Shown piece after piece: positions 29,197-47,600 of a stretch of DNA of 64,000 nt. The DNA is from Clostridia bacterium. GTDB lineage: Bacteria; Bacillota; Clostridia; Oscillospirales; Acutalibacteraceae. Position numbers and translations under genes: made by a program. Numbering within the stretch: position 1 is the first letter of the stretch; each line of letters starts with the position of its first letter. The notes beneath the pieces were generated by a model. It did no database searches and was not told the origin of the DNA. It saw only the letters and a program-made list of their open reading frames with translations. The DNA is taken from assembly GCA_017436915.1 (NCBI GenBank), contig JAFSCE010000014.1, positions 1,974 through 65,973 of the forward strand, read 5' to 3'.

Positions 29197-29283
29197 GCCG
29201 GTGTGATGGAATTGGCAGACGTAGTGGACTCAAAATCCACCGCTGGCGACAGCGTGCCGGTTCGAGTCCGGCCACCGGCACCA
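29197..29283 (+). tRNA. tRNA-Leu (anticodon CAA)
   Basis: 87-nt class II tRNA with a long variable arm. The acceptor GCCGGTG pairs with CACCGGC, the anticodon loop is CTCAAAA, and CCA is encoded. Confidence 0.95.
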
Positions 29284-31248: not shown

Positions 31249-31288
31249 AAAAAACAAAGGGACTGTTTTGGCAGTCCCTTTGTTTTTT
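31249..31288 (+). terminator. Terminator after the orphan gene
   Basis: CAAAGGGACTG pairs with CAGTCCCTTTG, followed by a T-run. It is homologous to the hairpin at 34504-34543. Confidence 0.6.
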
Positions 31289-31329
31289 GGTTTAATTGTA
31301 AACGCTTGAACGATACGGTCCAAGTACCG

Positions 31330-31399
31330 TTTGTTATTTACCGATTATCACGTTGTTTACGCTGATGGAATCGGGTAATTCCTTGTCGGTAACGATGGT
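31330..31399 (-). pseudogene. Orphan 70-bp copy of the 3' end of the DeoR gene at 34581-35321 (direct repeat, copy 1)
   Basis: Identical base for base to 34577-34646. It contains the stop codon and the last 21 codons (TIVTDKELPDSISVNNVIIGK). The upstream frame is closed by a TAA within about 8 codons and has no start. Confidence 0.9.
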
Positions 31400-31470: not shown

Positions 31471-32178
31471 TTAAGTGTTGGAAGAGTCGGCGGTTATAAC
31501 GGCGGTTATATCTTCTTTTCGACATAGCGTATGAAGCATTTTTTGACCGATTTTGTTTTGCTCACAAAGAAAGACCTTTTGCAATGAATGTTCAAGCATG
31601 ATTTTTCTTATTGCCAGTTGTTTCTCGTCAAAATCTGAAATGAGTCCCTCTTTGGAATATGCCGCGGTAGTGAAAAACATGATGTCAACATTAAGTTCTC
31701 GCGCATATTGTTCTGCAATTGAACCCACAAAACACATATCTGGTTCGTAATAGTCGCCGCCTATCAGAATACACGGTATATGCAGGTTTGAAGCTGAAAG
31801 AAGCGCTTTAACGGAATTGGTGATGATCTTCATGTTCTTAAACGCCGAAACGTGCGGGATTATATATTGGCAGGTGGAAGAGCTATCAATATAGATGTTC
31901 ATATTATCTTTTAAAAAAGGAAGACATTTTTTTGCAAGTTCTTTCTTTTCTTCTTCATCAAATAAAATTCGATGAGCAAGCGGCATTTCTTTTGGGCTTG
32001 AAGCAAGCACAGCGCCACCATGATAACGCCTCAAATATCCGCCTTTTTCCATAGCTGTAAGATCACGTCGAACGGTCATTTCGGTAACGTATAGTTTTTT
32101 CGCAAGTTCGCTTACACTGATTTTCCCTGTGTCATACAAAATATACAGTATTTCCTGCTGCCTGGCATTTAGTTCCAT
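31471..32178 (-). CDS. DeoR-family transcriptional regulator
   Basis: HTH segment ISVSELAKKLYVTEMTVRRDLTAMEK plus a DeoR C-terminal domain. The ATG at 32178 follows ACGAGGTG. Confidence 0.85.
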   Translation of the reverse strand: MELNARQQEILYILYDTGKISVSELAKKLYVTEMTVRRDLTAMEKGGYLRRYHGGAVLASSPKEMPLAHRILFDEEEKKELAKKCLPFLKDNMNIYIDSSSTCQYIIPHVSAFKNMKIITNSVKALLSASNLHIPCILIGGDYYEPDMCFVGSIAEQYARELNVDIMFFTTAAYSKEGLISDFDEKQLAIRKIMLEHSLQKVFLCEQNKIGQKMLHTLCRKEDITAVITADSSNT

Positions 32179-32308
32179 TTCAGTACACCTCGTTTGAAAG
32201 GATGTTCGTTTATAAACATAACGAACATCCGTTGACGCAAAAATGTTCGTATAATACAATTATACATAGGCGATATATACCTGTCAATTTATATTTGGAG
32301 GGAATACT

Positions 32309-33178
32309 ATGTTGGTTACCATGAAGGAAATGCTCACTGATGCGAAAAAGAATCAGTATGCGATTCCTGCGTTTGACGTCAGTAATTACGAGATGATGAA
32401 GTCTGTGTTGGATGCGTGTGAAGAAGAAAGAAGTCCGGCTCTTTTAATGGGTTTAGGAGTAGATTTAGAAGGTAAAGCTCTTGAATTGATGGCTTCTATG
32501 GTAAAGGCAGCATCGGATTTTTATACAATACCCGTTTGCTTCCATTTGGATCATGCAACGGATTTCAATTTTATTAAAAAAGCAATCGACGCGGGGTTCA
32601 GCTCCGTTATGTATGACGGCTCGGTTTTGGATTTTGAGAATAATGCCAAAAACACGGCAGAGGTTGCAAAATATGCACACGCCCGTGGTATAACCGTGGA
32701 AGCAGAGCTTGGACACGTTGGTAATGCGAGTGTTGGCAGTATTAGCGAAACGGGAACGGATACCGATCCCGGTGAGAGTCTGACGGTACCGGACGAGGTT
32801 TTAAAGTTTGTTGAAATGACCGACGTTGATGCGCTTGCCGTTGCCATAGGCACGTCCCATGGCGTGTATAAGAAAACGCCCGAACTCAGAATAGATCGAT
32901 TGGACGAAATTACGGCTGTTTGTGACAGACCGCTTGTTCTTCACGGCGGAAGCGGCACACCTGAGGATCAAATGAAAAATGCGATACAACACGGTATTAC
33001 GAAGATCAATATTTATTCTGACGTTGTTTTTGCTCTCAATAAGGGCCTTAAAGATAAGTTGAACACAATTGAAAACCCGTCGACATGGCCGTTTATTGTT
33101 TTTGAAGAGGCAAGAGTTATGATGAAAGATGTTGTCAAAACCAAATTAAGACAGTTTGGCAGCGCGGGTCGCATTTAA
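32309..33178 (+). CDS. Class II ketose-bisphosphate aldolase (FbaA/GatY/KbaY family)
   Basis: Carries YAIPAFDVSNYE, HLDHATDF, and GTSHGVYK followed by LVLHGGSGTP. Confidence 0.85.
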   Translation: MLVTMKEMLTDAKKNQYAIPAFDVSNYEMMKSVLDACEEERSPALLMGLGVDLEGKALELMASMVKAASDFYTIPVCFHLDHATDFNFIKKAIDAGFSSVMYDGSVLDFENNAKNTAEVAKYAHARGITVEAELGHVGNASVGSISETGTDTDPGESLTVPDEVLKFVEMTDVDALAVAIGTSHGVYKKTPELRIDRLDEITAVCDRPLVLHGGSGTPEDQMKNAIQHGITKINIYSDVVFALNKGLKDKLNTIENPSTWPFIVFEEARVMMKDVVKTKLRQFGSAGRI

Positions 33179-33196
33179 GTGAGCGGAGGTGGTTTT

Positions 33197-34435
33197 ATGA
33201 AAACAAAAGCAGTTCGTTTATACGGCGAAAACGATTTACGACTTGAAGAGTTTGAATTACCCGAGCTTAAGAACGGCGAGATACTTGTTAAGGTGATTTC
33301 GGACAGTGTATGCATGTCTACATATAAAACCGTTAAGCAGGGAGCAAAACACCTGCGAGTTCCTAATGACGTGGCGGAGAATCCCATTATTGTGGGGCAT
33401 GAATTTTGCGCAGAGGTAGTGGAGGTGACCGACAAACACAAGGATAAGTTCAAGGTCGGAGATAAAGTGGTTATGCCACCCGTTCTTTCATATCTCGGCG
33501 GCCCGGAAACCGTCGGTTATTCTTTCTGCGAAATTGGCGGTGCGTCAACTTACTCAATCGTTTATGATCATATTATTGAAAACGATTATTTAATTAAAAT
33601 TGAAAGTGACTCGTATTTTAACGGCTCGCTTATCGAACCTGCTTCTTGTGTGATAAGAGGATATAAAGCGTCTTTGCATTTGGACGAAAACCTGAAGCCA
33701 TATAGTAATATCAAGGCGGGCGGCAAAGTGGCAATCCTTGCCGGCTGTGGGCCTATGGGTCTTGTGGCAATCGATATCGCATTGCATGGAGACATTAAAC
33801 CATCTCTGGTGGTTGTAACCGATTTAAGTCAGGAACGGTTAGAACGAGCAAAACAGTTGTTTAATCCCGAACAGGCCAAAAAAGATGGTATTGATCTAAA
33901 ATTTGTGGCTTCCTCTGATAAAGATGAACTGCTTAAATTTACCGATGGCAGTGGGTATGACGACGTTTTCGTTTATGCACCGGTAGAGACTGTGGTTGAA
34001 TTAGCCGATGAAATACTTGGTTTTGACGGAAGTCTTAATTTCTTTGCAGGACCGTTGGATAAAAAGTTTAGCGCAAAGTTTAATTTTTACAACGTTCATT
34101 ACCAACAGCATCACGTTTCGGGTACAAGCGGCAGCACGACCGACGACATGAGAGATATTGTTCGTTTGATCGGTGAAAAACGCATAAATCCCGCTGTTAT
34201 GATAACGCATATCGGCGGTATTGATGCGGTAATCGATACGACCATCCGCTTAACCGAAATACCCGGTGGAAAAAAGTTAATATACACACACATTAATTTG
34301 CCTTTGACGGCAATTGATGATTTTGAAAAATTGGGCAAGTCGAATGAGCATTTTAAAATGCTTGCCGATATAGTTAAGCAAAATAACGGCTTGTGGTGTA
34401 CTGAAGCCGAAAAGTATTTGTTATCTCATTTCTAA
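33197..34435 (+). CDS. Zn-dependent MDR dehydrogenase (~410 aa; resembles the sorbose-1-phosphate reductase-type subgroup)
   Basis: Carries LVKVISDSVCMSTYK, VGHEF and GCGPMGLVAI. The ATG at 33197 follows GGAGGTGG. The subgroup assignment is from memory only. Confidence 0.75.
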   Translation: MKTKAVRLYGENDLRLEEFELPELKNGEILVKVISDSVCMSTYKTVKQGAKHLRVPNDVAENPIIVGHEFCAEVVEVTDKHKDKFKVGDKVVMPPVLSYLGGPETVGYSFCEIGGASTYSIVYDHIIENDYLIKIESDSYFNGSLIEPASCVIRGYKASLHLDENLKPYSNIKAGGKVAILAGCGPMGLVAIDIALHGDIKPSLVVVTDLSQERLERAKQLFNPEQAKKDGIDLKFVASSDKDELLKFTDGSGYDDVFVYAPVETVVELADEILGFDGSLNFFAGPLDKKFSAKFNFYNVHYQQHHVSGTSGSTTDDMRDIVRLIGEKRINPAVMITHIGGIDAVIDTTIRLTEIPGGKKLIYTHINLPLTAIDDFEKLGKSNEHFKMLADIVKQNNGLWCTEAEKYLLSHF

Positions 34436-34503
34436 TATGTTGTTTATAGCACAAAAGATAAAATATTCAATTTTTAGACCGCATTCATTTTGAGTGTCTG
34501 GTC

Positions 34504-34543
34504 AAAAAAACAAAGGACTACTTTGGTAGTCCTTTGTTTTTTT
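34504..34543 (+). terminator. Terminator after the dehydrogenase gene
   Basis: CAAAGGACTAC pairs with GTAGTCCTTTG, followed by a T-run. Confidence 0.6.
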
Positions 34544-34576
34544 AATCCACTATTTAAGAGTGTCATGATTGAGGTT

Positions 34577-34646
34577 TTTGTTATTTACCGATTATCACGT
34601 TGTTTACGCTGATGGAATCGGGTAATTCCTTGTCGGTAACGATGGT
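34577..34646 (-). repeat. 70-bp perfect direct repeat, copy 2 (functional 3' end of the DeoR gene)
   Basis: Identical to 31330-31399. Confidence 0.9.
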
Positions 34647-35321
34647 GTTGATATCCGCTGTATTACAGACGGTGAAAGGGAACACGTTGCCAATTTTGTT
34701 GCTGTCAACGATCAGACATGTTTTTGCTGAATTGCGCAGCATGGTTTTATGAATGTCGTCTTCGGTGGAAGAAACGGTCACCTTGCCATCGAATCCAACC
34801 CCTCTCGCGGAAAAGAACATAATGTCCGCGTTAATACCGCTAATCATATTTCTGGCAAACTCCCCAACGTACGAGTTGGAATGATGTAGAAATTTACCGC
34901 CTGTACTATAAACGATAATATCGGTTTCCGAAAGCATTTTCGGCACATCCGGGCTGTTCGTAATCACCGTTAAATGGTTATGCATTTTCAAATGCGGTAC
35001 GAGATACTCCGTGGTGGTGGATGACGCTAAAAAAATAGTCATATTATCCTGTAAAAGCTTTGCCGCAGAATGGCAGAGCTTTTTCTTTATTTCCGCATTT
35101 TCATTGCGACGAATCGTAATCGGAACTTCGGAACTGTACGTATCAAAAATCACGGCACCGCCGAACGTTTTTCGAATTTTCAGTTCCTTATCAAGCGTGT
35201 TTAAATCGCGTCGTATGGTTGCTTCACTGTAGTTAAGTAACTTCGCCAGTTTTGCTACGGAACAGCTTTTTTCCTTTTTTAAGATCTCAAGTATCTTATC
35301 TCTACGTTCAATGTCGTACAT
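34581..35321 (-). CDS. DeoR-family transcriptional regulator
   Basis: HTH segment CSVAKLAKLLNYSEATIRRDLNTLDK plus a DeoR C-terminal domain. Confidence 0.85.
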   Translation of the reverse strand: MYDIERRDKILEILKKEKSCSVAKLAKLLNYSEATIRRDLNTLDKELKIRKTFGGAVIFDTYSSEVPITIRRNENAEIKKKLCHSAAKLLQDNMTIFLASSTTTEYLVPHLKMHNHLTVITNSPDVPKMLSETDIIVYSTGGKFLHHSNSYVGEFARNMISGINADIMFFSARGVGFDGKVTVSSTEDDIHKTMLRNSAKTCLIVDSNKIGNVFPFTVCNTADINTIVTDKELPDSISVNNVIIGK

Positions 35322-35491
35322 GGCGCACTCCTTTTGCTCAAGTTTGATTGATTATGACTTAATTATACACAAAAAAATCTTATTTTTCAACCATTTGAAC
35401 AAACATTGAAAGTTTGTAAGGAGTTAAGTAGTATTTAGTTAAGTAGTTAAACAGGGAAGGTCCCTATCATTTTAACATTCGGGAGAGAGTT

Positions 35492-37348
35492 ATGAAAAGA
35501 GTAGCAGAGAGATTTCAAGAAAAGAATTTCGATTTGGTGGTTGTCGGTGGCGGTATGTCCGGACTGTGCGCGGCACTCGAAGCGGCGCGCAACGGCGTGA
35601 ATGTAGCGCTTGTTCATGCAAGACCGGTACTCGGCGGTAACGCTTCCAGTGAAGTGAGAGTACATATTTCCGGTGCGGATCATAGTCTTGAGAAAGCCGA
35701 CTATGCCGAAAGCGGTATTTTGTACGAACTGATGCTGGAAAACAAGGCACGGAACGACAACTTCAGTTATTCTACTTGGGATTTGATTTTATTTGAAGCT
35801 GCTAAAAAGCAGGAAAATCTGACCGTTTACTATAACACAGTCATGTATGACTGTGAAACGGATGAGGATAAAATCACGGCCATTTTCTGCGTTCAGGAAA
35901 CCACGGAAATGCGCTATCGGTTTACGGCACCGCTGTTTGTTGATGCAACGGGAAACGGAACGCTTGGGTATTATGCGGGGGCTGAATTCAGACAGGGCAG
36001 CGAATCGAAAGCGCAAACGGGTGAGCTTGATGCGCCTGAAACTGAAAATAATGAGCGTATGGGAAATACCATTTTCTTCAGAGCGCGAAATATGGGGCAT
36101 CCGGTGAAATTTACACCGCCGTATTTTGCCAAAAAGTTTACCGAAGAAGATTTGCGCCACAGAATGCATTGCGCTACACACAAAGTGGACTATTCCGGTT
36201 GTTTGGATCCCGCCAAGAATGAGCAAACCGGTGGTGTTTCCAGCAGAGGAATCGAATACGGACATTTCTGGATCGAACTGATGGGCGATACCGACGACAT
36301 TATTACGGATTACGAAAACATCCGTGACGATTTGGTGGCGAGTCTTTACGGTGTGTGGGACCACGTGAAAAACGGCGGCGACCACGGCGCTGAAAACTAC
36401 GCCTTGGAATGGGTCGGCATGTTGCCCGGTACCCGTGAGTCAAGACGGCTTGTCGGCGATTATTTGCTGGATGAAACCGACATTTTGAACAACCGCATTT
36501 TCGACGATGCGGTATGCTACGGCGGTTGGAGTGTCGATTTGCACACAGCGCACGGTCTGCTCGACTTGCATCGTCATCCCTCAGGCGATTGCCGTTTTTT
36601 TGACGGTGTATACACCATTCCGTACCGTTCCTATTATTCCAAAAACATCAACAACCTGTTTATGGCAGGCCGAAATATCAGCGCCACGAAACTGGGAATG
36701 TGCAGTACCAGAATTATCGGTTGCTGTGCGATCGGCGGTCAGACCGTTGGTGCGGCAGCGGCTCTTTGCAAGAAATACAACTGCGCTCCGCGTGAACTGA
36801 TGCCGCATATTTCAGAACTTCAGCAACTGATTCTTAAAGATGACGGTTTCTTGCCCGGTTATAAAAATGAGGATATTAATGATTTGGCAAGGCAAGCAAC
36901 CTTTACGGCAACGTCGTGCAAGAACGGTTGCGAACCGCAAAACGTTGTCGACGGTATCTCGCGCCGTTTGGGTGACGATACGCATGCTTGGGTGTCTGAC
37001 GGTATTGGCAAAAATGGCGAGATCCTGACGATGGCCTTTGATTCGCCGATGGCAGTGCGCGAGTTGCGTCTGACCTTTGATTCCAACTTTAAGTATCCAA
37101 TCCGCGTGACGATGGCACCGAACCGCCAGAAACAACAACGTCCCGGTGTGCCCGAGGAGTTGGTGAAAGATTATACATTGCTCTTTAAAAACGGCGAAGA
37201 CATCGTTCGCACGATCGACGTGCGGGATAACCACCAACGGCATAACGTACATCGTTTTGAAGCGACGGTGTGTGATAAGGTTGAACTGCAAATCACAGCC
37301 ACCAATGGCGGTAAAGAGATTACAGTGTTTGAAGTAAGAGCGTACTGA
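35492..37348 (+). CDS. FAD-dependent oxidoreductase (FAD_oxidored/PF12831-like) with a C-terminal beta-sandwich (discoidin/CBM-like) domain
   Basis: N-terminal dinucleotide-binding motif FDLVVVGGGMSGLCAALEAARNG followed by GGNASSE. The C-terminal ~150 aa (NVVDGISRRLGDDTHAWVSD through ELRLTFDS) resemble the F5/8-type-C pattern. Confidence 0.7.
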   Translation: MKRVAERFQEKNFDLVVVGGGMSGLCAALEAARNGVNVALVHARPVLGGNASSEVRVHISGADHSLEKADYAESGILYELMLENKARNDNFSYSTWDLILFEAAKKQENLTVYYNTVMYDCETDEDKITAIFCVQETTEMRYRFTAPLFVDATGNGTLGYYAGAEFRQGSESKAQTGELDAPETENNERMGNTIFFRARNMGHPVKFTPPYFAKKFTEEDLRHRMHCATHKVDYSGCLDPAKNEQTGGVSSRGIEYGHFWIELMGDTDDIITDYENIRDDLVASLYGVWDHVKNGGDHGAENYALEWVGMLPGTRESRRLVGDYLLDETDILNNRIFDDAVCYGGWSVDLHTAHGLLDLHRHPSGDCRFFDGVYTIPYRSYYSKNINNLFMAGRNISATKLGMCSTRIIGCCAIGGQTVGAAAALCKKYNCAPRELMPHISELQQLILKDDGFLPGYKNEDINDLARQATFTATSCKNGCEPQNVVDGISRRLGDDTHAWVSDGIGKNGEILTMAFDSPMAVRELRLTFDSNFKYPIRVTMAPNRQKQQRPGVPEELVKDYTLLFKNGEDIVRTIDVRDNHQRHNVHRFEATVCDKVELQITATNGGKEITVFEVRAY

Positions 37349-37353
37349 TATCG

Positions 37354-38133
37354 TCAGGTTTCATAGCTGTCGATATATCTTGTGGGCGATACACCCACCA
37401 TCTTTTTGAACATATTGGAAAAGTAATATACGTTATCAAAGCCGCACTTCAACGCTATTTCGGAGACGCTGTATGTGGTCCCGATTAAAAGCTTTTTAGC
37501 TTTTTTCATACGTTCGCTTAAAATGAATTGTCCGATCGACATTTCAAATTCGCGACGGAATTTGAAGTTCAGTGTTGATGCATTGGTGTTAACGGCATGG
37601 CAAATGTCGCCGATAAGGAGTTTCTTGTCAAGGTTTTGCCGTATGTATTCCGTTGCATCGGAAACAAGGCGATCCGTGCAAAGTTTCTCCTCTAATACGA
37701 GGTAAGGGGCGTTGTGTTCGTAAAAAAGCTGGAATAAAATATCCATAAGCAAGTGTTCGCGATATCCTGCCGATAATCTGTCGTCGTGGTCGATGTATTT
37801 TTCTATTGCATCGATGCTTGACAAAAATCGTTCTTTATCCTTAACGGAAACCTTGCCGAACGGTATATCGAACGAATACGGACAACTGAAATCGCGACAA
37901 AACATCACGTAAACGAATTCGATGGGATTTAGTACGGCGCGGCGGAAATATAGATTGTCGGGGAGCAGGACACAATCTCCCGCGTGCAATTGCTGTGTCA
38001 ATCCGTTAATTTCCATTACGAAATCGCCTTTTTTCAGATAAAAAAGCGCGTAAGTAGGCTGATAGCCGTCGGATTGCACGAATTGTTTTCGGCTTGATAT
38101 CTTGGATTCTATAATTTTATAAGGAAATATCAT
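37354..38133 (-). CDS. AraC-family transcriptional regulator
   Basis: N-terminal cupin-like sensor domain. The C-terminus carries dual HTH motifs (LLIGDICHAVNTNASTLNFKFRREF and SVSEIALKCGFDNVYYFSNMFKK). Confidence 0.85.
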   Translation of the reverse strand: MIFPYKIIESKISSRKQFVQSDGYQPTYALFYLKKGDFVMEINGLTQQLHAGDCVLLPDNLYFRRAVLNPIEFVYVMFCRDFSCPYSFDIPFGKVSVKDKERFLSSIDAIEKYIDHDDRLSAGYREHLLMDILFQLFYEHNAPYLVLEEKLCTDRLVSDATEYIRQNLDKKLLIGDICHAVNTNASTLNFKFRREFEMSIGQFILSERMKKAKKLLIGTTYSVSEIALKCGFDNVYYFSNMFKKMVGVSPTRYIDSYET

Positions 38134-38243
38134 AGTTTTTCTCCTGTTTATTGTTGTATTTTATAAATTTGATTTTAGCATATTGTATTGTTAAGGTCAA
38201 TGAAAACAGTATAATTGGAGTATAAATCGAAAGGGGAATAACT

Positions 38244-39590
38244 ATGAATCGTGTAACTTTAGATGTTCAAAGAGAATACGAATGTGATGTTCTTGTCTGC
38301 GGCGGAGGCGTGAGCGGGTTTGCAGCAGCCGTTTCTGCGGCGAGAAACGGTGCAAAAACTATCCTTATCGAGTCCGGCGGGTTTCTTGGCGGAACTGCAA
38401 CGAAGGGGCTGGTAGCGCCGTTTATGACGTGCTACGATGCAGAGGGCAAAGAACGGATCATTAAGGGCTTGTATTTAGAACTTGAAAAACGCTTGCTTGA
38501 GTTAAATGGTGCCGTTTCGGCAGACCAATGTTTGGGCTCGAACAGTTACAATGGTTATCGTCCGATGGGGCATAAGGGTGTTATGCCGTTCGACGGAGAA
38601 ATCATTAAAATCGTTTTTGAACAGATGTGTTTGGAAGCAGGGGTACATCTGTTGTATCACACTACGTTAATCGGTTGTGAAACGCAGGGGAAGAACGTTT
38701 CCGTTGTGTATGCTTGCGACAGCAACGATATTATTTCAATCAAGGCAAAAATGTTTATCGATACCACGGGTACCTCGGCACTTGCCTATAAGGCGGGCGC
38801 GGAAACGATGCGCGGTAACGAAGACGGTATTTTGCAAACAACGTCGATGTTCTTTACAATTTCGGGTGTGGACAAAGCGTATGTGGATGCCCATATGGAA
38901 AGAATGACGGAAAGACGCGAAAGATTTTATATGGATGCTATCGAACAAGGGAAGAAGGATGGTACTTTCCCTTGCGGAACGCCCACCATACGAATGTTTG
39001 AAAACCCCAACGGAACGTATAGTGTGAATATGGCGCAAATCGATGAGCAGGTCAATGAACTTGATAATGAAGTCATTACGCAGTGTGAGATAAGTCAGCG
39101 CTTACAGATTCAGCAGATAATCAAATTTATGCGTAACAATATCCCCGGCCTTGAAAACGTGGAACTGGTAGCGACTGCTTCGGATCTTGGCGTCAGAGAG
39201 AGTCGCCGTATGGTCGGTAAAACGATTTTCTGTTTGGAGGATATTCAACAATCCAAAAAATTTGATGATCGCATTGCGGTTTGCGCCAATTCCATCGATA
39301 TCCATCAAAAGGATAGAGTGAACTACACAACCCACACGGGAAGCAACTACTACATTCCGCTTTCGTGTTTGATTTCGAACAATATAGACAACTTGCTTAC
39401 CGCCGGTAAAAGCCTTTCTGCCGACAGATACGCTTTCGCCGCCGTTCGCGTGATGCCGCCTTGCATTGCTATGGGCGAGGCTGTCGGCATCACGGCTGCT
39501 CTTGCGGCAAAGAAAAACATTGCGGCAGCAGATGTTCCTTGCAAAGAGGTTCAGGATATACTTGTTGCAAACGGGGCATATCTGGGATAA
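38244..39590 (+). CDS. FAD-dependent oxidoreductase (FAD_oxidored/PF12831-like)
   Basis: Carries CDVLVCGGGVSGFAAAVSAARNG followed by GGTATKG. Confidence 0.7.
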   Translation: MNRVTLDVQREYECDVLVCGGGVSGFAAAVSAARNGAKTILIESGGFLGGTATKGLVAPFMTCYDAEGKERIIKGLYLELEKRLLELNGAVSADQCLGSNSYNGYRPMGHKGVMPFDGEIIKIVFEQMCLEAGVHLLYHTTLIGCETQGKNVSVVYACDSNDIISIKAKMFIDTTGTSALAYKAGAETMRGNEDGILQTTSMFFTISGVDKAYVDAHMERMTERRERFYMDAIEQGKKDGTFPCGTPTIRMFENPNGTYSVNMAQIDEQVNELDNEVITQCEISQRLQIQQIIKFMRNNIPGLENVELVATASDLGVRESRRMVGKTIFCLEDIQQSKKFDDRIAVCANSIDIHQKDRVNYTTHTGSNYYIPLSCLISNNIDNLLTAGKSLSADRYAFAAVRVMPPCIAMGEAVGITAALAAKKNIAAADVPCKEVQDILVANGAYLG

Positions 39591-39664
39591 GCTGAGATAC
39601 ACAGAGGAACAAGGTTGTGCAGTTTCTGAAAACCTTATTACCAATAAACTATGGAGGGAATTCA

Positions 39665-40981
39665 ATGAACTTGGAGTTTAATCCTAATGAAATTTGTGCC
39701 TGTGGAAAGGTACATAAAACGGATGTTGAAAACTGCGTGATCGAAGAGGGTGCGGTTAATCGCATTCCGGAGTATGCCGCAAAATTCAATGCGAAAAAGG
39801 CGTTTATCGTGGCCGATGTCAATACGTTCCCTCTCGCGGGCGAGAAGATTGAGAATATGCTAAAGGAAAACGGCATAGGCTCAGCCCACTATATCTATCA
39901 GCAAAAACGGCTGGAACCTGACGAGCACGCTATGGGATCTCTTGTGATGCATTTTGATGCCGCGTGTGATTTGATTATCGGTATTGGCTCCGGTGTCATT
40001 AACGATATCTGCAAAGTGTTTGCTTATCAAACCAAACGTCCGTATATTATTGTTGCCTCGGCAGCGTATATGGACGGTTATGCTGCCAGAACGTCAACCA
40101 TGCCTGTTGACAGGATAAAAACTACCATTTCCGCCAAAAGTCCCGATGTTATTATTGGTGATCTGGATATTTTAACAGGAGCACCGAAACATATGGCAGC
40201 GGCAGGCCTTGGCGATATGCTGGCAAAGTATATCAGCATTTGCGAATGGCGATTGTCACATCTTATCAACGGTGAATATTACTGCGAGCGTGTTGCGGAA
40301 TTCACCAGACAATCCCGTGATGCGTGTGTTCAAAACGCCGAAGGGTTGATGAAACAGGATAAAAGCAGTATGAAGAAACTGTTTGAAGGGTTAATCAACT
40401 GCGGTAAAGCGATAGACTATTCGGGCGTTTCCAGACCGGGCGGCGGCGATGAACACTATTTTTGCCAAATGTTAGATATGCGTGGCTTGGAATTCGGCAC
40501 TCCCACCGCTTCGCACGGTGTTCAGTGCGCGCTTGGCACGTTGTACGCGATCAAATGCTATCAAGCGTTAAAGCACATTACACCCGACCGCGAGAAAGCG
40601 ATCAAGTACGCGGAAAGCTTTGATTTTGAAGACTGGAGTCGACAACTGCGTGAATTTTTAGGAAAAGGTGCAGAGCCGATGATCGCACTTGAAGCAAAAG
40701 AGCAAAAATACAGTGCCGAAAAGCACAAAATCAGACTCAACGTTATTCTTGAAAATTGGGATACGATCCTGAAGATCATTGATGAAGAACTACCGTCTGT
40801 TGATGAGTTTGAAAGCATTTTGAAGGTTATTGGGTTGCCGACAAGCATAGAGGAAATTGGGGTGGAGAAAGAACTCTTGCCCATGATTATCAAGTCTACC
40901 AAGGATATACGCGATAAATACGTTTTGCCGAGACTTTTGTGGGATTTGGGTGTTCTCGAAGAAGTTTGTTCAAGTTTATAA
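39665..40981 (+). CDS. Iron-containing ADH / dehydroquinate-synthase-like superfamily protein; glycerol-1-phosphate dehydrogenase (AraM/EgsA)-like
   Basis: Carries GIGSGVINDICK and a Gly-rich Rossmann-like segment, with a His-rich metal site region (HGVQCALG). The ATG at 39665 follows GGAGGG. Confidence 0.65.
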   Translation: MNLEFNPNEICACGKVHKTDVENCVIEEGAVNRIPEYAAKFNAKKAFIVADVNTFPLAGEKIENMLKENGIGSAHYIYQQKRLEPDEHAMGSLVMHFDAACDLIIGIGSGVINDICKVFAYQTKRPYIIVASAAYMDGYAARTSTMPVDRIKTTISAKSPDVIIGDLDILTGAPKHMAAAGLGDMLAKYISICEWRLSHLINGEYYCERVAEFTRQSRDACVQNAEGLMKQDKSSMKKLFEGLINCGKAIDYSGVSRPGGGDEHYFCQMLDMRGLEFGTPTASHGVQCALGTLYAIKCYQALKHITPDREKAIKYAESFDFEDWSRQLREFLGKGAEPMIALEAKEQKYSAEKHKIRLNVILENWDTILKIIDEELPSVDEFESILKVIGLPTSIEEIGVEKELLPMIIKSTKDIRDKYVLPRLLWDLGVLEEVCSSL

Positions 40982-41048
40982 CCATCCATCAAACGTATTT
41001 CATTTGATAAAAGATCGTGCTATAATTTTGAAAGAGGGAAGTGTTTGT

Positions 41049-41930
41049 ATGCGCATCGGTATCAATTCAGCCGTCTCAAGTGTATCGGGATATTGCAGAG
41101 GTTACGTAAAACATTTTGGTGAGGATACCTATAAAAAGATGAAGGAATTTGGTTTTTCCTGCGTCGACAATGGTGTTTTAACGGTAGATCCTGCCTTTTA
41201 CAAAGCAGATGCCGAAACACAACAGCGTCTGCTTTTGCGTGAAAAAGCATTGGCGGATGAGGCGGGTATTTGCATTCATCAAGAACATGGTCCCATTCTG
41301 TCTTCAGCTCACGCGGTTCCCGAGGAAGAAATTGCCGAGTTTTTGGAAAAAATGAAAGTAGCCATCGAGTCGTGCACGATACTTGGATGCGAATACTTGG
41401 TTCTACATCCGTTGATGGTAAACGGTTGGAGTGACAGAGGAACTGTCATCGCCAAAGATACCATTGAAAAAAATATCAATCACCTGCGGACGCTCGGTGA
41501 CTATGCAAAACAGTATGGAATCACGCTTTGCCTTGAAAATCTGCCGTGTGTCGGTTTTTGTATCAGCACACCGGAAGACGTTTTGTCGGTAGTAAAAGCG
41601 GTAGATCATGATAACGTCAAGATTTGTATCGATACGGGACACATTACGGCATTTTCTTCGCAGTTAAAAGTTGGTAAGGAAATCAGAAAATGCGGTGATT
41701 TGATTAAAGTGCTTCACGTGCACGATAATCATGGCCGTGCCGATCAGCATAATTTCCCCGGCATGGGCATGATCGACTGGACGGACGTCATGGCTGCGTT
41801 GCGCGAAATTGGCTTTGACGGTGTTTTCTCGTTGGAAGTCGTTCATCCTGACAGATTCTCAAAACCGATTTTTGAACATGCCTGCCGTCTTTCCTTTGAG
41901 ATGGCAAACGAAATTGCCAACGGAGTATAA
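41049..41930 (+). CDS. Sugar phosphate isomerase/epimerase-family TIM-barrel protein (xylose isomerase-like fold)
   Basis: About 293 aa. Carries LVLHP, LCLENLP, IDTGH and HVHDNHG, the metal-ligand pattern typical of the AP-endonuclease-2/xylose isomerase-like family. Confidence 0.8.
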   Translation: MRIGINSAVSSVSGYCRGYVKHFGEDTYKKMKEFGFSCVDNGVLTVDPAFYKADAETQQRLLLREKALADEAGICIHQEHGPILSSAHAVPEEEIAEFLEKMKVAIESCTILGCEYLVLHPLMVNGWSDRGTVIAKDTIEKNINHLRTLGDYAKQYGITLCLENLPCVGFCISTPEDVLSVVKAVDHDNVKICIDTGHITAFSSQLKVGKEIRKCGDLIKVLHVHDNHGRADQHNFPGMGMIDWTDVMAALREIGFDGVFSLEVVHPDRFSKPIFEHACRLSFEMANEIANGV

Positions 41931-42115
41931 AGATAATTGCTGCGGGCGACCTTATGTTCTTGAATGCGAACGTGAAGGTAATAAACGGTTGATAAAAAAG
42001 CACATGTGCAGGCATGTGCTTTTTTCGTTTTATATTGCAAAGGCGATGGAATTATGCTTTAATAATAACAAGTGCAGATTGTACACTCAACAAATCTCTC
42101 TTGGGAGGAAACATC

Positions 42116-43699
42116 ATGAAAAACGTATTGAAACTTGAAGAACTTTCCGTAGAACAAAAGCTCGGTTTGGCCACCATTTCGTTTAACTGGAAAGCTTCGA
42201 TCAAGCCGGAGAACATGGAGTATTTGGCAGAACTCGTCAAAAACCGCATGCTCGGTGGCGTGTGGATGACGCCGCTTCACGGTGAGAACGCGCCTTACAT
42301 CAAGCGGTTAAAAGAGTTGGCGGATTATCCGCTCTTGGTATTTACCGATGCAGAGAGAGGTCTTGGCGAGTATTCCATCGGTGGACACAATACGATCGGC
42401 GTGACCGACAACGAAGAGTTGGCTTACACGTTTGGCAAAATTACGGCGGCACGAGCAGCGGCAATGGAGTACAACGTGGTGTGTAACCCCATTCTGGATA
42501 TGAGCAACGAAAACTGCATAGCCGGTGGTACCATGCGTGGGTATGGAGCAGACAAAGATCGAGTAACTGCACTTGCCGCCGCGGAAGCGCAGGGTATGCA
42601 CGATGGCGGTTGTCTGACGATTGGCAAACATTACCCCGGAAGAAGCCAAGGCAGCAACATCTCGCGCATTGATTCACATATGGGAGGAATCACCTCATCT
42701 GCCACTAAAGAGGATTTATTGGATTACGCCCTGTATCCGTATATGGAACTGGATAAAAAAGGGTTGCTGGACGGCGTAATGCTGGGACACACCACTTTTG
42801 TTAACATTGATCCCGATTATCCTGTCAGTCTTTCCAAACACGGCATTCAAATTCTGCGTGATCAGGGCTTTGAGGGGCTTGCCATAACCGATTCGTTGAC
42901 CATGATGGCCGTTGTTGCAAAATACGGTCACAAGAACAGTGTTGGGTATTGCGTTGGAAATGCAAATGCGATGGCACTTCCGTGGCAAGAAGATCACTCC
43001 AAAGTGATTCAGTGGATGCGTGAGTGCTATGACGAGGGTATTATCACGGATGAGGCGTTGGATGAGACGGTCAAGCGTGTGATTGCCATGCAAGAAAAAG
43101 TGTTGTCGTTGCCGACAGGTGTAAAACCCACCGAGGAAGAGTTCAATAAGTTCCACCGTCTTAACACGGATTCGGTGTGCGCATTGGTTGATGACGGCTT
43201 GACGACCACACTTGATAAAAACGGCAAGTATTATTTTGCAATACTGACCGAGGCCGGCAAACATGAAAACGTCAGCGTGGTGACCTTTAAAGATCAGTGG
43301 TATAACCCGGTAGCCATTCAAGAACGCCTGGAAAAGGAGTTTCCGAATGCCAAGGCGGGGCTTCTCAGTGAGTTCCCGTCTTCCGGTGAGATTCAGGCGT
43401 TTTTGGAAGACTCGCTCGACCGTGAAACCGTGTTTGTGACGTTTTGCATGACGCAAGCGTATGTAGGTGTAGAAAAATTCACACCGCGCATCACCTCGTT
43501 GATAGACGCGATGCAAACATCAAATCGCGTTTCAACGGTGGTGCATTTTGGCAATCCGTTCCTGCTCGAAGATTTACCGCATATTCCGCGTATACTTGTG
43601 GGTACAATCTCGACAAAGGGCGTGGATGCCACACTTGACGTGCTGACAGGCAAGTATCCTGCCAAGGGCGTTATGACCTATGATGTAAATTTGAAATAA
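42116..43699 (+). CDS. Glycoside hydrolase family 3 protein (NagZ/beta-glucosidase-like N-terminal domain)
   Basis: Carries GKHYPG and a putative nucleophile region, AITDSLTMMAV. The ATG at 42116 follows GGGAGGAAA. No signal peptide was noticed. Confidence 0.75.
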   Translation: MKNVLKLEELSVEQKLGLATISFNWKASIKPENMEYLAELVKNRMLGGVWMTPLHGENAPYIKRLKELADYPLLVFTDAERGLGEYSIGGHNTIGVTDNEELAYTFGKITAARAAAMEYNVVCNPILDMSNENCIAGGTMRGYGADKDRVTALAAAEAQGMHDGGCLTIGKHYPGRSQGSNISRIDSHMGGITSSATKEDLLDYALYPYMELDKKGLLDGVMLGHTTFVNIDPDYPVSLSKHGIQILRDQGFEGLAITDSLTMMAVVAKYGHKNSVGYCVGNANAMALPWQEDHSKVIQWMRECYDEGIITDEALDETVKRVIAMQEKVLSLPTGVKPTEEEFNKFHRLNTDSVCALVDDGLTTTLDKNGKYYFAILTEAGKHENVSVVTFKDQWYNPVAIQERLEKEFPNAKAGLLSEFPSSGEIQAFLEDSLDRETVFVTFCMTQAYVGVEKFTPRITSLIDAMQTSNRVSTVVHFGNPFLLEDLPHIPRILVGTISTKGVDATLDVLTGKYPAKGVMTYDVNLK

Positions 43700-43710
43700 T
43701 CAAATAAAGA

Positions 43711-43744
43711 CAAGCGGCAGTGAGCAAATGCTCACTGCCGCTTG
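43711..43744. terminator. Bidirectional hairpin between GH3 and EamA; its arms match the hairpin at 44645-44677
   Basis: CAAGCGGCAGTGAGC, an AAAT loop, then GCTCACTGCCGCTTG. Confidence 0.6.
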
Positions 43745-44622
43745 CTATTGTTAGGATTGTGTTCCAGTACGATCAAACCGATTGCCACCAAGACAATACC
43801 GAGGATGCCGAGCGGACCCATATATTCCGCAAAGACAAGAGTGCCGATCACGGCGGCAACGACGGGTTCAGCAATGCATAGCACCGCTGCTTTTCCGGCG
43901 GCGGTCTTAGACAATCCGTAGGTGTAGAGCATATACGGAAGAACCGTTTCGAATACGGCGATACTCAATGACCACAGCGTGTTGGCGGGGGTTGCCATCA
44001 ATGTGAGAAGCGAGGGAAGATTACACAGTGGCAAAACACCGAATACGGCGAACAAAAAGGTGTAAAAGGTGATGGTCATCGTGTGATAGCGTTTGGCGGC
44101 GAGCTTGCCGAAGATGCTGTACAGCGCATAGCCAAAGCCGGACAACAAACCAAATATCAGCCCGAGTTTGGTGAGGGTGAGTGTCGGGGAAACGGATACA
44201 AAAACACAGCCCGCAAACGCGATCGCCAGAGCAAGAACGCGTCTGACGGTGAACCTTTCCTTGAAGATCGGCACGGACAAAAACAGCACCCAGAACGGCG
44301 AGGTGTACATTAGAATGCAAGCGACCGATACGGAGTTTTCGACAAGGGAGTTCATATAGCAGATGTTAAAAAACAAAAAACTGCAGATCCCTGAGCCGAG
44401 AAACAGCCACAGATCGCGCAGGCGAACGCGAAACAGCTTCGGATCCTTGACGAGAAGGATGATCGCTAAAATCAGCGCGGTGAAAAGCGCGCGCACGGCG
44501 ACCATTTGTGTGGAAGTGAAGCCACGTGTGGCCATATTGCGTGAGAAAAGACTGATACAGCCCCACAGTACTGCGGCAAGAAGAATGGCCGCTTCGCCGA
44601 GATGTGCCTTGATACGGTTCAT
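43732..44622 (-). CDS. EamA/DMT-superfamily transporter
   Basis: About 10 TM helices with duplicated EamA domains. I prefer the ATG at 44622 (MNRIKAHLGEAAILLAAVLWG) because the longer track ORF begins inside the upstream hairpin. Confidence 0.8.
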   Translation of the reverse strand: MNRIKAHLGEAAILLAAVLWGCISLFSRNMATRGFTSTQMVAVRALFTALILAIILLVKDPKLFRVRLRDLWLFLGSGICSFLFFNICYMNSLVENSVSVACILMYTSPFWVLFLSVPIFKERFTVRRVLALAIAFAGCVFVSVSPTLTLTKLGLIFGLLSGFGYALYSIFGKLAAKRYHTMTITFYTFLFAVFGVLPLCNLPSLLTLMATPANTLWSLSIAVFETVLPYMLYTYGLSKTAAGKAAVLCIAEPVVAAVIGTLVFAEYMGPLGILGIVLVAIGLIVLEHNPNNSKRQ

Positions 44623-44644
44623 AACAAACGTCCTTTGGAATGTG

Positions 44645-44677
44645 AAGCGGCAGTGAGCCAAAACTCACTGCCGCTTT
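44645..44677 (-). terminator. rpoC terminator hairpin
   Basis: AAGCGGCAGTGAG, a CCAAAA loop, then CTCACTGCCGCTT. It lies 4 nt downstream of the rpoC stop. Confidence 0.6.
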
Positions 44678-44681
44678 AAGT

Positions 44682-47600
44682 TTATTCTTCGATCGGTGCG
44701 GGTTCTACCGCTTCGCCATCGTCCTCCAACATACTGCGGAGAGCGGCAACGTAGGGATCATCACTGGAAGCGTGGGTGTTCACGACATCGACGTCGTTGT
44801 ACACCGGCATACCCGTACCGGCGGGGATCAGCTTACCGATGATGACGTTTTCCTTAAGGCCCAACAGCGGATCGACCTTGCCCTTGATAGCGGCGTCGGT
44901 CAGCACGCGTGTGGTTTCCTGGAAGGAAGCGGCAGATAAGAACGAATCGGTTGCGAGCGACGCTTTGGTGATACCCAAAAGAACCGGCGAGCAAGTCGCC
45001 TCTTTCAAGTGAATATCGCCGGCCTCGATACGAGCGCGCACGCGGGCGTTCTCTTGATCAAACTGGCTGCGATCGATCATGGCACCGGATAACAGATAGG
45101 TGTCACCGGCATCGTCAACTTTCACCTTGCGCATCATCTGACGGACGATGACTTCAACATGTTTGTCGTTGATATCAACACCCTGCATACGGTAGGTGCG
45201 TTGTACTTCCTGAATGAGGTAGTTCTGCACCGCTTCTGCACCGCTGACAGCCAAAATGTCGTGCGGGTTGATGGAGCCCTCGGTCAGGCGGTCGCCCTTC
45301 TTGACAACGTCGCCGTCCTGTACACGGATACGGGAACCGAACGAGATCGGATAGCTGCGTTCGTCGGGATTCTCGGCATCCTGCGAGGTGACGTACACCA
45401 CGCGTTTTTTCTTTTCCTCGCCCAAACGGATAACACCGTCGATCTCGGAAATGATGGCGAGCGACTTGGGTTTGCGGCCCTCGAACAACTCTTCAACACG
45501 GGGAAGGCCCTGCGTAATATCTTCAGCGGACGCGACACCACCGGTATGGAAGGTACGCATCGTGAGCTGAGTACCCGGCTCACCGATAGACTGTGCGGCG
45601 ATGATACCGACAGCCTCACCGACGGTAACGGGATCGACGGTAGCAAGGTTCGAGCCATAGCACTTAGCACAGACGCCGTGCTCTGCCTGGCAGGTCAGCA
45701 CCGAGCGGATCTTGATGCGTTCCACGCCGTAGGTGTTAACGAGCAACTTGGCATCCGCATCGTTCATCATGTGGTCACGGCTGATGACCACTTCACCGGT
45801 TGCGGGATCAACGAAATCGTCAGCGAGGAAGCGGCCGACCAAACGCTCGGTGAGCGGCTCGATCATTTCCTTGCCATCCTTGATATCGTAGACTTCAATA
45901 CCCTCGTGGGTACCGCAATCGTCCTCGCGGATGATGACATCCTGAGAAACGTCGACCAGACGACGGGTCAGGTAACCGGAGTCCGCCGTACGCAGAGCGG
46001 TATCGGCCAAGCCCTTACGCGCACCACGCGACGAAATGAAGTATTCCAAAATGTTCAGGCCTTCACGGTAGTTAGCACGAATCGGGACCTCGATCGTACG
46101 ACCGGAGGTGTTCGCGATAAGGCCGCGCATACCGGCAAGCTGACGAATCTGAGCGATAGAACCACGAGCACCGGAATCCGACATCATGTAGATTGGGTTG
46201 AACGGATCCATGTTGTTGTTCAGCGCTTTGGTGACCTTGTCGGTGGTATCGTTCCAGGTCTTGATAACCATCTGGTAACGCTCTTCGTCGGAAAGGAGAC
46301 CTTGGTTGTACAGATCGGTAATCTGTTCCACCGTTTGCTCCGCTTCTGCGATGAGGTCTTTCTTCTCCGGCGGGATGGAAGCATCCACAACGGCAACCGT
46401 CAACGCACCGCGAGTGGAGTATTTATAGCCCTGCGCCTTCACGGCATCCAGCACCTCGGAGGTGCGGGCAGGGCCGTGAACTTTGATGCACTTGTCAATG
46501 ATCTGAGACAGTTGCTTTTTGCCGACCTTGTAGTTGACCTCATAGAGGAACATATCGTCGGTCGTTTTACGCTCAACCAAACCGAGATCCTGCGGAATGG
46601 GATGGTTGAAGATGATGCGGCCCACGGTGGTTTCCACCAAGCGGGACTGCTTCACGCCGTCGATCTCCATGGTGCGGCGGACCTTGATCTTTGCGTGCAG
46701 ACCGACAACTTTATCGGCATATGCCATAAGCGCTTCGTTCTCATCGCGGAAGATCTTGCCTTCGCCGAACTCACCGGGTTTCTCAATGGTCAGATAGTAC
46801 GAGCCGAGAACCATATCCTGTGTCGGAACGGTGACGGGACGTCCATCGGACGGTTTCAAAAGGTTGCCCGCCGCGAGCATCAAGAAGCGAGCTTCTGCCT
46901 GTGCTTCCGCGGACAGCGGTACGTGCACAGCCATCTGGTCACCGTCGAAGTCCGCGTTAAAGGCGGTACAAGCGAGCGGGTGCAGTTTGATGGCACGGCC
47001 CTCAACCAGTACCGGCTCAAACGCCTGGATACCCAAGCGGTGCAGCGTCGGCGCACGGTTGAGCATGACCGGATGATCTTTGATGACGATCTCGAGCGCA
47101 TCCCACACTTCGGGACGGACACGATCAACCATCTTACGGGCGGTCTTGATGTTGCCGGCAGCACCGGTTTCCACCAAGCGTTTCATAACGAAGGGTTTGA
47201 ACAGCTCCAGTGCCATTTCCTTCGGCAGACCGCACTGATACATTTTCAGTTCCGGACCGACGACGATAACCGAACGGCCGGAGTAGTCAACACGTTTACC
47301 GAGCAAGTTCTGACGGAAACGACCTTGCTTACCTTTAAGCATATCCGACAAGGATTTGAGCGAGCGGTTATTGGGGCCGGTGACCGGGCGGCCGCGACGG
47401 CCGTTGTCGATCAGGGCATCCACCGCTTCTTGAAGCATACGCTTCTCGTTACGGACGATGATATCCGGCGCGCCCAGTTCCAACAATCTCTTCAGACGAT
47501 TGTTGCGGTTAATGACGCGGCGGTACAGGTCGTTTAAGTCCGAGGTGGCAAAACGGCCACCGTCCAACTGAACCATCGGGCGGATATCCGGCGGAATGAC

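Follow-up and report, generated by a model that had tools for sequence, protein, structure and literature searches.

Does a run of genes that looks like a single catabolic cluster encode a single pathway, and what does its conserved part do? The question is raised by positions 32309-43699 of a 64,000-nt stretch of DNA ("the window"; contig JAFSCE010000014.1, positions 1,974-65,973 of the forward strand) from assembly GCA_017436915.1 of a Clostridia bacterium (Acutalibacteraceae), a genome of 1.5 Mb that is 99% complete and lies in 38 contigs. All coordinates given here count within the window. An earlier note on this DNA had read the region as one oxidative route for a glycoside, in which a flavin adenine dinucleotide (FAD)-dependent enzyme and a triose-phosphate isomerase (TIM) barrel protein generate and cleave a 3-keto-glycoside and an aldolase and a dehydrogenase process the released sugar. 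The gene content on which that reading was built was confirmed by open reading frame (ORF) calls and by Pfam and NCBIfam searches: all ten genes were present with the positions and families described, and no permease, phosphotransferase system, ABC component, or kinase domain was found among the ORFs of 32309-43699. We are nevertheless highly confident that the region is a mosaic of separable regulator-plus-enzyme units and not one pathway. Its core contains a real, conserved module without assigned function, made up of genes for a DeoR regulator, a PF12831 flavoprotein, a homologue of sn-glycerol-1-phosphate dehydrogenase (G1PDH), and a TIM barrel protein resembling MJ1311.

Separable units in the island

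The region comprises three units. The first is a 3.2-kb cassette encoding a DeoR-family regulator (DeoR1; 31471..32259, minus strand; PF08220 and PF00455), a class II ketose-bisphosphate aldolase (32309..33178, plus strand; PF01116, 5e-91; TIGR00167), and a 418-aa zinc-dependent polyol-dehydrogenase-like protein (33179..34435, plus strand; ADH_N and ADH_zinc_N). The second is a 7.4-kb core block (34577-42025). Here a second DeoR-family regulator (DeoR2; 34581..35321, minus strand; PF08220 and PF00455) is divergent from a PF12831 flavoprotein of 618 aa (FAD618; 35492..37348, plus strand; PF12831, 1.7e-82) that has a C-terminal beta-sandwich-like tail (DUF7402, 2.6e-6). An AraC-family regulator (37354..38133, minus strand; HTH_18/HTH_AraC) is then divergent from a second PF12831 flavoprotein, of 448 aa (FAD448; 38244..39590, plus strand; PF12831, 3.4e-110), which is followed by an AraM-type G1PDH homologue (39665..40981, plus strand; PF13685, Fe-ADH_2) and by the MJ1311-like TIM barrel of xylose-isomerase fold, here called TIM (41049..41930, plus strand; PF01261, AP_endonuc_2). 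The third unit is a cytoplasmic NagZ-type family 3 glycoside hydrolase (GH3; 42116..43699, plus strand; PF00933). The ORFs of the G1PDH homologue, TIM, and GH3 open at GTG 39617, GTG 40950, and 42014, respectively, but the true starts are likely to be ATG 39665, ATG 41049, and ATG 42116, because the homologues are 438-440, 290-296, and 520-530 aa long. No signal peptide was evident by eye in any of these three proteins.

The limits of the cassette were defined by a perfect 70-nt direct repeat (100% identity). Its left copy (31330..31399) is a duplicated 3' end of DeoR2 and its right copy (34577..34646) overlaps the 3' end of DeoR2 itself, at the left edge of the core block. The two copies bracket exactly DeoR1, the aldolase, the dehydrogenase, and the terminator hairpin that closes the aldolase-dehydrogenase unit (34504..34543, plus strand; an inverted repeat with 18-nt arms, 100% complementary), a unit of 3247 bp. 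The unoccupied site was found in a genome of the same genus (G013), where the sequence to the left of the first copy continues directly into the sequence to the right of the second. G013 carries DeoR2-FAD618-AraC-FAD448-G1PDH-TIM at 95% nucleotide identity, with no cassette and no adjacent GH3, and the similarity starts exactly at the right repeat copy (34577) and ends at 42025, the end of a terminator hairpin (41994..42025, plus strand; 14-bp stem and T run) that forms the right edge of the core block. The G013 TIM (L021, 9405-10394) was only 80% identical to that of the window, compared with 99% for FAD448, 100% for AraC, and 94% for the G1PDH homologue, and this drop therefore places a recombination breakpoint inside or just after the G1PDH gene.

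The aldolase and the zinc-dehydrogenase had been proposed as the downstream steps of the route, and this part of the proposal fell. From DeoR1 onward the cassette is absent from G013 and from metagenome run X10, whose contig covers only 34627-41942; stretches without cover in a metagenome run are no evidence of absence. Seven further genomes of the genus carry the aldolase-dehydrogenase pair at 75-83% amino acid identity, and no FAD or TIM gene lies near it there. A SorC-type regulator adjoins it in three annotated loci (L015, L016, and L018), and an FGGY kinase follows in one of them. In run X9 a contig joins 34577 back to 31330 (a step back of 3248, with 123 nt on the shorter side), which could represent a circular or tandem form of the cassette or an assembly path through the 70-nt repeat. 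The hairpins at 31246-31291, before the left repeat copy, and at 34504-34543, at the cassette end, are related sequences (A-run, CAAAGG(G)ACT stem, T-run), so that the cassette ends seem to share terminator-like hairpins.

The GH3 gene, which lies behind the 41994-42025 terminator, is predicted to be a transcription unit and an insertion unit of its own, and it is probably not a step of the proposed route either. The other predicted transcription units are 32232-34543, 35406-37348, and 38188-42025. One contig of metagenome run X5 (10.2 kb) spans 34617-44836, whereas a second contig of the same run, at higher depth, joins 29283, the end of a tRNA-Leu gene, to 42020 with 35 other bases between, giving tRNA-Leu followed by GH3. 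A joint of this kind may reflect the DNA of a different organism; its ends nevertheless match the tRNA end and the terminator, both of which were found independently. Sister genomes (L022 = G006:C95, 3931-20000; G017:C51) carry tandem arrays of five to six NagZ-type GH3 paralogues with 57-90% amino acid identity to the window copy.

The core block itself appears to be composite. In 9 of the 10 closest genome loci, and likewise in L001-L004, AraC and FAD448 form an isolated divergent pair. Because this pair is self-contained elsewhere, and because orthologues of FAD618 directly abut G1PDH genes (below), the simplest history would be an ancestral DeoR/FAD618-G1PDH-TIM operon into which AraC-FAD448 was inserted later. 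Serial insertion of cassettes is suggested at another site as well. At 9130-16627 of L001/L002 there are two cassettes, one of AraC with a FAD448 orthologue and one of AraC with a GH38 gene. Behind each lies a 43-63-aa piece corresponding to the 3' end of the upstream SpoIVB-like Peptidase_S55 gene, and an IS200-type Y1 transposase gene comes next. This looks like serial cassette insertion with a duplicated target-gene end, as in the window.

A conserved flavoprotein-dehydrogenase-barrel module

Conservation of the gene neighborhood was assessed in a class-level sample of 300 Clostridia genomes. A G1PDH homologue was present in 86 of these at E ≤ 1e-40, and PF12831 genes, often in several copies, were present in 126. 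The 20 best G1PDH-homologue loci, which represent five genera in four families besides the genus of the window, were taken for neighborhood analysis. A PF12831 gene adjoins G1PDH in nine of the 20, mostly of the FAD618 type with a G-x-RE(S/T)RR motif, and a DeoR gene lies beside G1PDH in seven. An AP_endonuc_2 TIM barrel is found at six: four of these keep all nine of the metal ligands described below, another is represented by a truncated ORF, and the sixth departs from the set at two positions. In L027, L110, L126, L127, and L130 an orthologue of FAD618 (76-78% identical) lies immediately before G1PDH. In L126 and L130, Pfam assignments gave the order fusA-tuf, AraC on the minus strand, and then a GH127-like gene-FAD618-G1PDH-TIM with gaps of 3-23 nt. 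The order in L120 is DeoR / G1PDH-FAD-FAD-FAD-TIM / AraC / GH35, and that in L119 is DeoR / G1PDH-FAD618 / AraC / GH35-TIM.

The module is thus usually under a DeoR regulator and, in several loci, stands beside a glycosidase whose family varies. Most of the G1PDH-anchored loci, like the window, lack a transporter or kinase. The suggestion of the earlier note that the FAD and TIM proteins form a functional pair is accordingly upheld for the FAD618-G1PDH-TIM trio, which recurs in other gut Clostridia in tight operons by glycosidases, and not for FAD448, whose orthologues are mostly alone with AraC. An AP_endonuc_2 gene was a neighbor in only five of the 80 loci of a FAD448-anchored survey, and three TIM homologues were in unrelated contexts. 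Taken alone, these observations would suggest that the FAD-TIM pairing is not conserved, a reading that the G1PDH-anchored survey overturned.

The L126/L130 operon follows fusA-tuf and the island of the window follows rpoB-rpoC, so that both sites lie by the conserved rpoBC/str region. The G1PDH homologues of L133 and L134 are 732-744 aa long, apparently fused to another domain, and lie beside FGGY kinases; in L132 a G1PDH homologue and an FGGY kinase occur together unfused.

Core enzymes and candidate substrates

The AlphaFold2 model of TIM had a predicted local distance difference test score (pLDDT) of 95. Its fold matched UlaE, D-tagatose 3-epimerase (DTE), and xylose isomerases alike (Z 27-28), with no discrimination within the superfamily. 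A profile of the TIM family matched, among PDB entries, MJ1311 at 6e-37, IolI at 1e-22, the ketose 3-epimerases at ~1e-20, endonuclease IV (Nfo) at 1e-12, and YcjR at 5e-5. MJ1311 of Methanocaldococcus jannaschii (PDB 3wqo, "D-tagatose 3-epimerase-like protein") was the best match by both sequence and profile (2e-22 and 6e-37) and shares the motif set HP / LEN / D..GH / H.HDN / D.H / E, but it is archaeal and only ~24% identical to TIM. Its authors are said to have noted conserved endonuclease-IV zinc ligands and the lack of a DNA groove.

Nine invariant residues of TIM (H80, H120, E163, D195, H198, H223, D232, H234, and E263) align one-to-one (hhalign, probability 82%) with the metal ligands of Nfo, which we take to be H69, H109, E145, D179, H182, H216, D229, H231, and E261 in the numbering of Hosfield 1999. 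All nine are kept in TIM barrels of 25-31% identity next to FAD or G1PDH genes in L005, L029, L104, L120, L126, L127, and L130, and also in the L090 protein, where the H225Q exchange lies outside the nine. The E-D-H-E ligands of the epimerases are present too (E163, D195, H223, and E263). This predicted nine-ligand active site is the feature that discriminates TIM from the mononuclear epimerases, which need only four ligands. At the same time TIM scored only 31 bits with TIGR00587 (Nfo; cut-off 130), and its NCBIfam match to CbiR (1.3e-13) was likewise far below the cut-off. It has a paralogue in the genome, and its gene sits in sugar loci, not in a DNA-repair context. CbiR, a PF01261 member, is a phosphodiesterase acting on a small molecule, a cobamide (PMC7733943), and the superfamily therefore includes at least this one small-molecule phosphodiesterase. 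Paralogues of TIM adjoin PHP phosphoesterases in L019 and L024.

The G1PDH homologue matched the solved bacterial G1PDH (PDB 9h4x) at 9e-42 and keeps the GSG, DG, and SRP..G.EH / HG motifs. It scored 96 bits with PF13685 and 162 bits with NF002022, under the cut-off of 413, and was the only strong match to its family in the genome (99 bits versus 47 and 34). A known counterpart is AraM of the Bacillus subtilis L-arabinose operon, likewise a bacterial Fe-ADH_2 G1PDH homologue in a carbohydrate-utilization locus; one relative found here even shares an operon with a GH127-like gene, of the beta-L-arabinofuranosidase family. B. subtilis AraM supplies sn-glycerol-1-phosphate to PcrB. In contrast, no PcrB/GGGPS homologue was found in the 99%-complete window genome, which makes a supply of sn-glycerol-1-phosphate for an ether-type lipid unlikely, and the G1PDH homologue here is coupled to PF12831 flavoproteins and TIM, neither of which, to our knowledge, occurs in the B. 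subtilis ara operon.

FAD618 carries a GTRESRR motif, and the FAD448 family has an invariant Arg-rich G-x-RESRR motif. The AlphaFold2 model of FAD448 (pLDDT 86.7) found its best fold matches (Z 17-21) among generic two-domain FAD enzymes, namely FixC, the geranylgeranyl-reductase-like Ta0516 (Z 20.6), FasV, sarcosine and glycine oxidases, and fumarate reductases. No solved structure was related to FAD448 beyond the dinucleotide-binding motif, and a protein-atlas look-up of FAD618 returned only generic "FAD-dependent oxidoreductase" clusters. The searchable literature yielded no functional study on PF12831/FAD_oxidored, on MJ1311, or on flavoenzymes in polysaccharide loci. Relatives of the flavoproteins occur in other settings. 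A GpsA-like gene precedes the flavoprotein gene in four loci of two phyla, and in one of these, L068, the order is DeoR / GpsA-like glycerol-3-phosphate dehydrogenase-PF12831-GDPD glycerophosphodiesterase. L036 (3047-7150) is another flavoprotein locus with a phosphoesterase; a DeoR regulator is followed there by a 572-aa fusion of PfkB kinase and PHP phosphoesterase, a FAD448 relative (42% identical), and a zinc-dependent alcohol dehydrogenase (Zn-ADH). In Eremiobacterota (L053, L071, L078, L088, L098, and others), distant FAD448 relatives (31-35% identical) belong to a conserved block with a BadF/BcrA-type sugar kinase, NanE, GH20-like proteins, a hydantoinase/oxoprolinase, and an amino-acid permease.

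We tentatively favor a reading in which the core processes, in the cytoplasm, a glycerol-containing substrate that is already phosphorylated; TIM would release sn-glycerol-1-phosphate from it and the G1PDH homologue would convert this to dihydroxyacetone phosphate (DHAP). A phosphorylated substrate is suggested because the module unites a dehydrogenase for phosphate esters with a DeoR-type regulator and a predicted metal centre like that of phosphoesterases, but has no kinase, and the same phosphoester logic is suggested by the parallel locus L068 with its GDPD, GpsA-like enzyme, and PF12831 relative. The nine Nfo-like ligands and their retention in distant TIM barrels, the precedent of CbiR, the PHP phosphoesterases next to TIM paralogues, and the G1PDH motifs in a genome that lacks PcrB fit this reading too. 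The substrate, arriving phosphorylated, might be a glycerophosphodiester or a glycosyl-glycerol-phosphate fragment from which the neighboring glycosidase would strip the sugar. TIM, with a predicted endonuclease-IV-like multi-metal centre, would act as the phosphoesterase yielding sn-glycerol-1-phosphate, which the G1PDH homologue would oxidize to DHAP. For the flavoproteins, whose RESRR motif would suit an anionic substrate, one could envisage a redox reaction on this moiety or on its partner. Such a route would resemble GlpQ/UgpQ-type catabolism, in which a GDPD and a glycerol-3-phosphate dehydrogenase likewise combine a phosphodiesterase and a glycerol-phosphate dehydrogenase under a DeoR/GlpR-like repressor, but it would use a phosphodiesterase of another fold family and implies the opposite enantiomer of glycerol phosphate.

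It is a more doubtful extension of this reading that the module serves sn-glycerol-1-phosphate-type glycoconjugates in particular, such as lipoteichoic acid fragments, phosphatidylglycerol head groups, or glycosyl-glycerol-phosphate. TIM would then be a glycerophosphodiesterase for the enantiomer that GlpQ lacks, the G1PDH would be catabolic, and the NagZ-type GH3, GH35, and GH127-like enzymes would strip the sugars. Polymers and head groups with sn-glycerol-1-phosphate (lipoteichoic acid and phosphatidylglycerol) exist in the habitat, and the polymers are not cleaved by GlpQ, which is specific for sn-glycerol-3-phosphate (PMC7086022).

Several points weigh against a phosphorylated glycerol compound as the substrate. 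The activities of the core enzymes are predictions from sequence, and in overall sequence and fold TIM resembles the ketose 3-epimerases, IolI, and UlaE as much as it does endonuclease IV. MJ1311, its closest relative, is itself without known activity. The G1PDH homologue falls below the equivalog cut-off and may thus have another polyol phosphate or a keto-sugar as its substrate. The two flavoproteins, the most conserved partners, get no role, and there is no linked transporter to import a phosphorylated compound. The FAD448 relatives of Eremiobacterota have amino-sugar genes for neighbors (BadF-type kinase, NanE, and GH20), not glycerol-phosphate genes; the parallel with L068 is a single locus; and the neighborhood counts, drawn from related genomes, do not amount to independent trials.

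Some of these points bear on an alternative that we regard as unlikely, although it fares best of the four considered, namely that the module interconverts ketoses or polyols (or their phosphates). TIM would be an epimerase or isomerase, and the flavoprotein and the G1PDH-like enzyme would be polyol(-phosphate) dehydrogenases for an unusual sugar delivered by the glycosidase. The best characterized relatives of TIM are indeed IolI, the D-tagatose/psicose 3-epimerases, and UlaE; its epimerase-type ligands are in place; Zn-ADH, FGGY, and PfkB genes accompany the PF12831 relatives in several loci; and DeoR regulators are typical of sugar-phosphate pathways. However, TIM scored far under the cut-offs of all NCBIfam epimerase and isomerase equivalogs (74 versus 300 bits for psicose epimerase, 60 versus 300 for IolO, and 35 versus 317 for the UlaE type), a mononuclear epimerase has no use for the five additional invariant His/Asp ligands, and the module has no kinase to make a phosphate ester.

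The oxidation-elimination route of the earlier note is, in our judgment, a doubtful alternative to the release of sn-glycerol-1-phosphate by TIM. In that route the PF12831 protein would oxidize a glycoside at C3, TIM would beta-eliminate the 3-keto-glycoside, and the G1PDH-like enzyme would reduce the keto-sugar. The established systems for C- and O-glycosides (DgpA with DgpBC, CarA with CarBC, and GlycDH with AtOGE) also combine an oxidoreductase with a metalloenzyme of xylose-isomerase-fold TIM barrel type in a cytoplasmic, catabolic locus. The island and related loci keep a flavoprotein, a TIM barrel, and an NAD(P) dehydrogenase together, next to glycosidases of more than one family. The tail of FAD618 is of a carbohydrate-binding-like kind, gut Clostridia show a strong expansion of PF12831, as the 126 genomes above illustrate, and the TIM profile also picks up the 3-keto-glucoside epimerase YcjR (5e-5). 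Moreover, the known O-glycoside and C-glycoside eliminases (OGE and CGE) are unrelated in sequence and converged, so that missing homology does not rule out the chemistry (PMC10628242).

The specific resemblances that this route implies were not found. The described flavoenzymes that oxidize glycosides at C3 all belong to the pyranose-oxidase/GMC family (PMC10628242), and the oxidoreductases of the known systems are either of this type (CarA, GlycDH, and PsG3Ox) or NAD-bound Gfo/Idh/MocA proteins. The proteins here are PF12831 members. Pfam detected no GMC_oxred domain in FAD448 or FAD618, in which the further matches were to the generic N-terminal DAO, FAD_binding_2, and GIDA models and, weakly in FAD618, to DUF7402; no GMC enzyme was among the best fold matches of the FAD448 model. 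A CarA-type sugar oxidase is thus not what these proteins resemble. A relationship of TIM to DgpBC/CarBC could not be sustained either. The TIM profile matched DgpC1 (PDB 9m3b) only at E 0.015 (17.8 bits over ~50 residues), compared with 6e-37 for MJ1311, and no CGE or OGE was among the top 50 fold matches of the TIM model. CGE and OGE eliminases use a catalytic His and hold a single Mn2+ ion with His/Asp/His/Glu, and the CGE enzymes are heterodimeric (PMC10628242), whereas TIM is the product of a single gene and its sequence shows the nine-ligand pattern of an endonuclease-IV-type site. There is no room for a DgpB/CarB-like partner at 32309-43699, where all ORFs of ≥100 aa are accounted for and the gaps are <200 nt, though no DgpB-specific model was run. 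The dehydrogenase keeps its G1PDH motifs, an ordinary glycosidase in the same loci lessens the need for a non-hydrolytic route, and no electron acceptor is evident in hosts that are presumably strict anaerobes.

It is improbable that no common pathway exists at all and that unrelated accessory cassettes have simply piled up at an insertion hot spot near tRNA-Leu and rpoC. The modular structure, the repeats, and the variant forms in other genomes and metagenomes would fit such an accumulation, as would the stand-alone AraC-FAD448 pairs and the comparable stack of AraC-plus-one-enzyme cassettes in L001. Chance would not be expected to bring FAD618, G1PDH, and TIM together repeatedly as a tight operon across several genera and families (the gaps in L126 are 3-23 nt). 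Biosynthesis of an ether-type or other sn-glycerol-1-phosphate-based lipid or polymer, with the G1PDH homologue as in the AraM-PcrB couple and a flavoprotein like geranylgeranyl reductase, is very improbable: the genome has no PcrB/GGGPS homologue, the Ta0516 fold match of FAD448 is generic, with FixC and sarcosine oxidase scoring just as high, both the regulators (AraC and DeoR) and the neighboring glycosidases speak for catabolism, and the island is accessory.

Neighboring features and biological meaning

The compositionally foreign stretch starts directly after tRNA-Leu(CAA) (29197..29283, plus strand; ARAGORN), at the left edge of the low-GC insert; from here the GC content drops to 36-48% (29.3-43.7 kb), compared with ~55% in the flanks. 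The first gene after the tRNA is a very AT-rich gene for a 566-aa protein with a weak DUF3878 match (29476-31176), a gene that is missing from G013 as well as from runs X5 and X10. An RNA library (X20) gave short contigs on this gene, on the aldolase/dehydrogenase pair, and on AraC, but the library may contain DNA and these were not counted as transcription. On the other side, the gene for an EamA/DMT-family transporter (43732..44661, minus strand; PF00892) lies outside the island and is the sole transporter gene nearby, as had been noted earlier. It is flanked by near-identical 32-nt palindromic hairpins (43712-43743 and 44645-44676), between GH3 and rpoC. The island lies beside rpoC, which encodes a 1204-aa protein of the Firmicutes type. 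The nearest protein relatives came from metagenome-assembled genomes of Clostridia and Ruminococcaceae from animal guts, and megablast of the region against E. coli genomes gave no match.

The cassette aldolase scored above the cut-offs of TIGR00167 (260 versus 216 bits) and PF01116 (305 bits) and below those of the specific FBA, GatY, and KbaY equivalogs of NCBIfam; the genome encodes two further class II aldolases. The nearest solved structures to the zinc-dehydrogenase are butanediol, sorbitol, and arabinitol dehydrogenases. Weak NCBIfam matches connect this enzyme to IolM, and TIM to IolO, IolE, and IolI, and thus recall the Thermotoga-type myo-inositol route (IolM and IolO) and IolE/IolI. 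The scores (82 versus 450, 60 versus 300, and 39 versus 290 bits) were far below the cut-offs, however, and the zinc-dehydrogenase and TIM belong here to separate mobile units. Membership in an inositol, sorbose, or arabinose pathway was rejected, there being no equivalog-level NCBIfam match. GH3, the only GH3 of the window genome, has the KHYPG...DSH Asp-His dyad and the ITDS nucleophile motif, aligned with PDB 3sql, of the NagZ type, and its nearest solved structures are GH3 beta-N-acetylglucosaminidases. It scored 78 bits with NF003740, under the cut-off of 207, and is therefore no orthologue of E. coli NagZ.

For annotation practice, the island illustrates that what looks like a "regulator-rich cluster" may consist of independent cassettes, each with one regulator, stacked side by side, and inference of a pathway from adjacency in a single genome is therefore unsafe. 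The object itself is of an ordinary kind, an accessory catabolic island, but its conserved core combines three enzyme groups on whose combination we found no paper: PF12831 flavoproteins, MJ1311-like TIM barrels, and AraM-type G1PDH outside lipid synthesis, to none of which a physiological role has been assigned in this setting. Found together again and again beside glycosidases in Clostridia of animal guts, they constitute a testable and probably new catabolic module. If it handles compounds of the sn-glycerol-1-phosphate type, this would explain how gut bacteria use an enantiomer closed to the classical GlpQ/GlpD routes, and why an "archaeal" G1P dehydrogenase is kept in bacterial sugar operons. 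A route for sn-glycerol-1-phosphate glycoconjugates, if confirmed, would provide the first physiological functions for three orphan enzyme groups.

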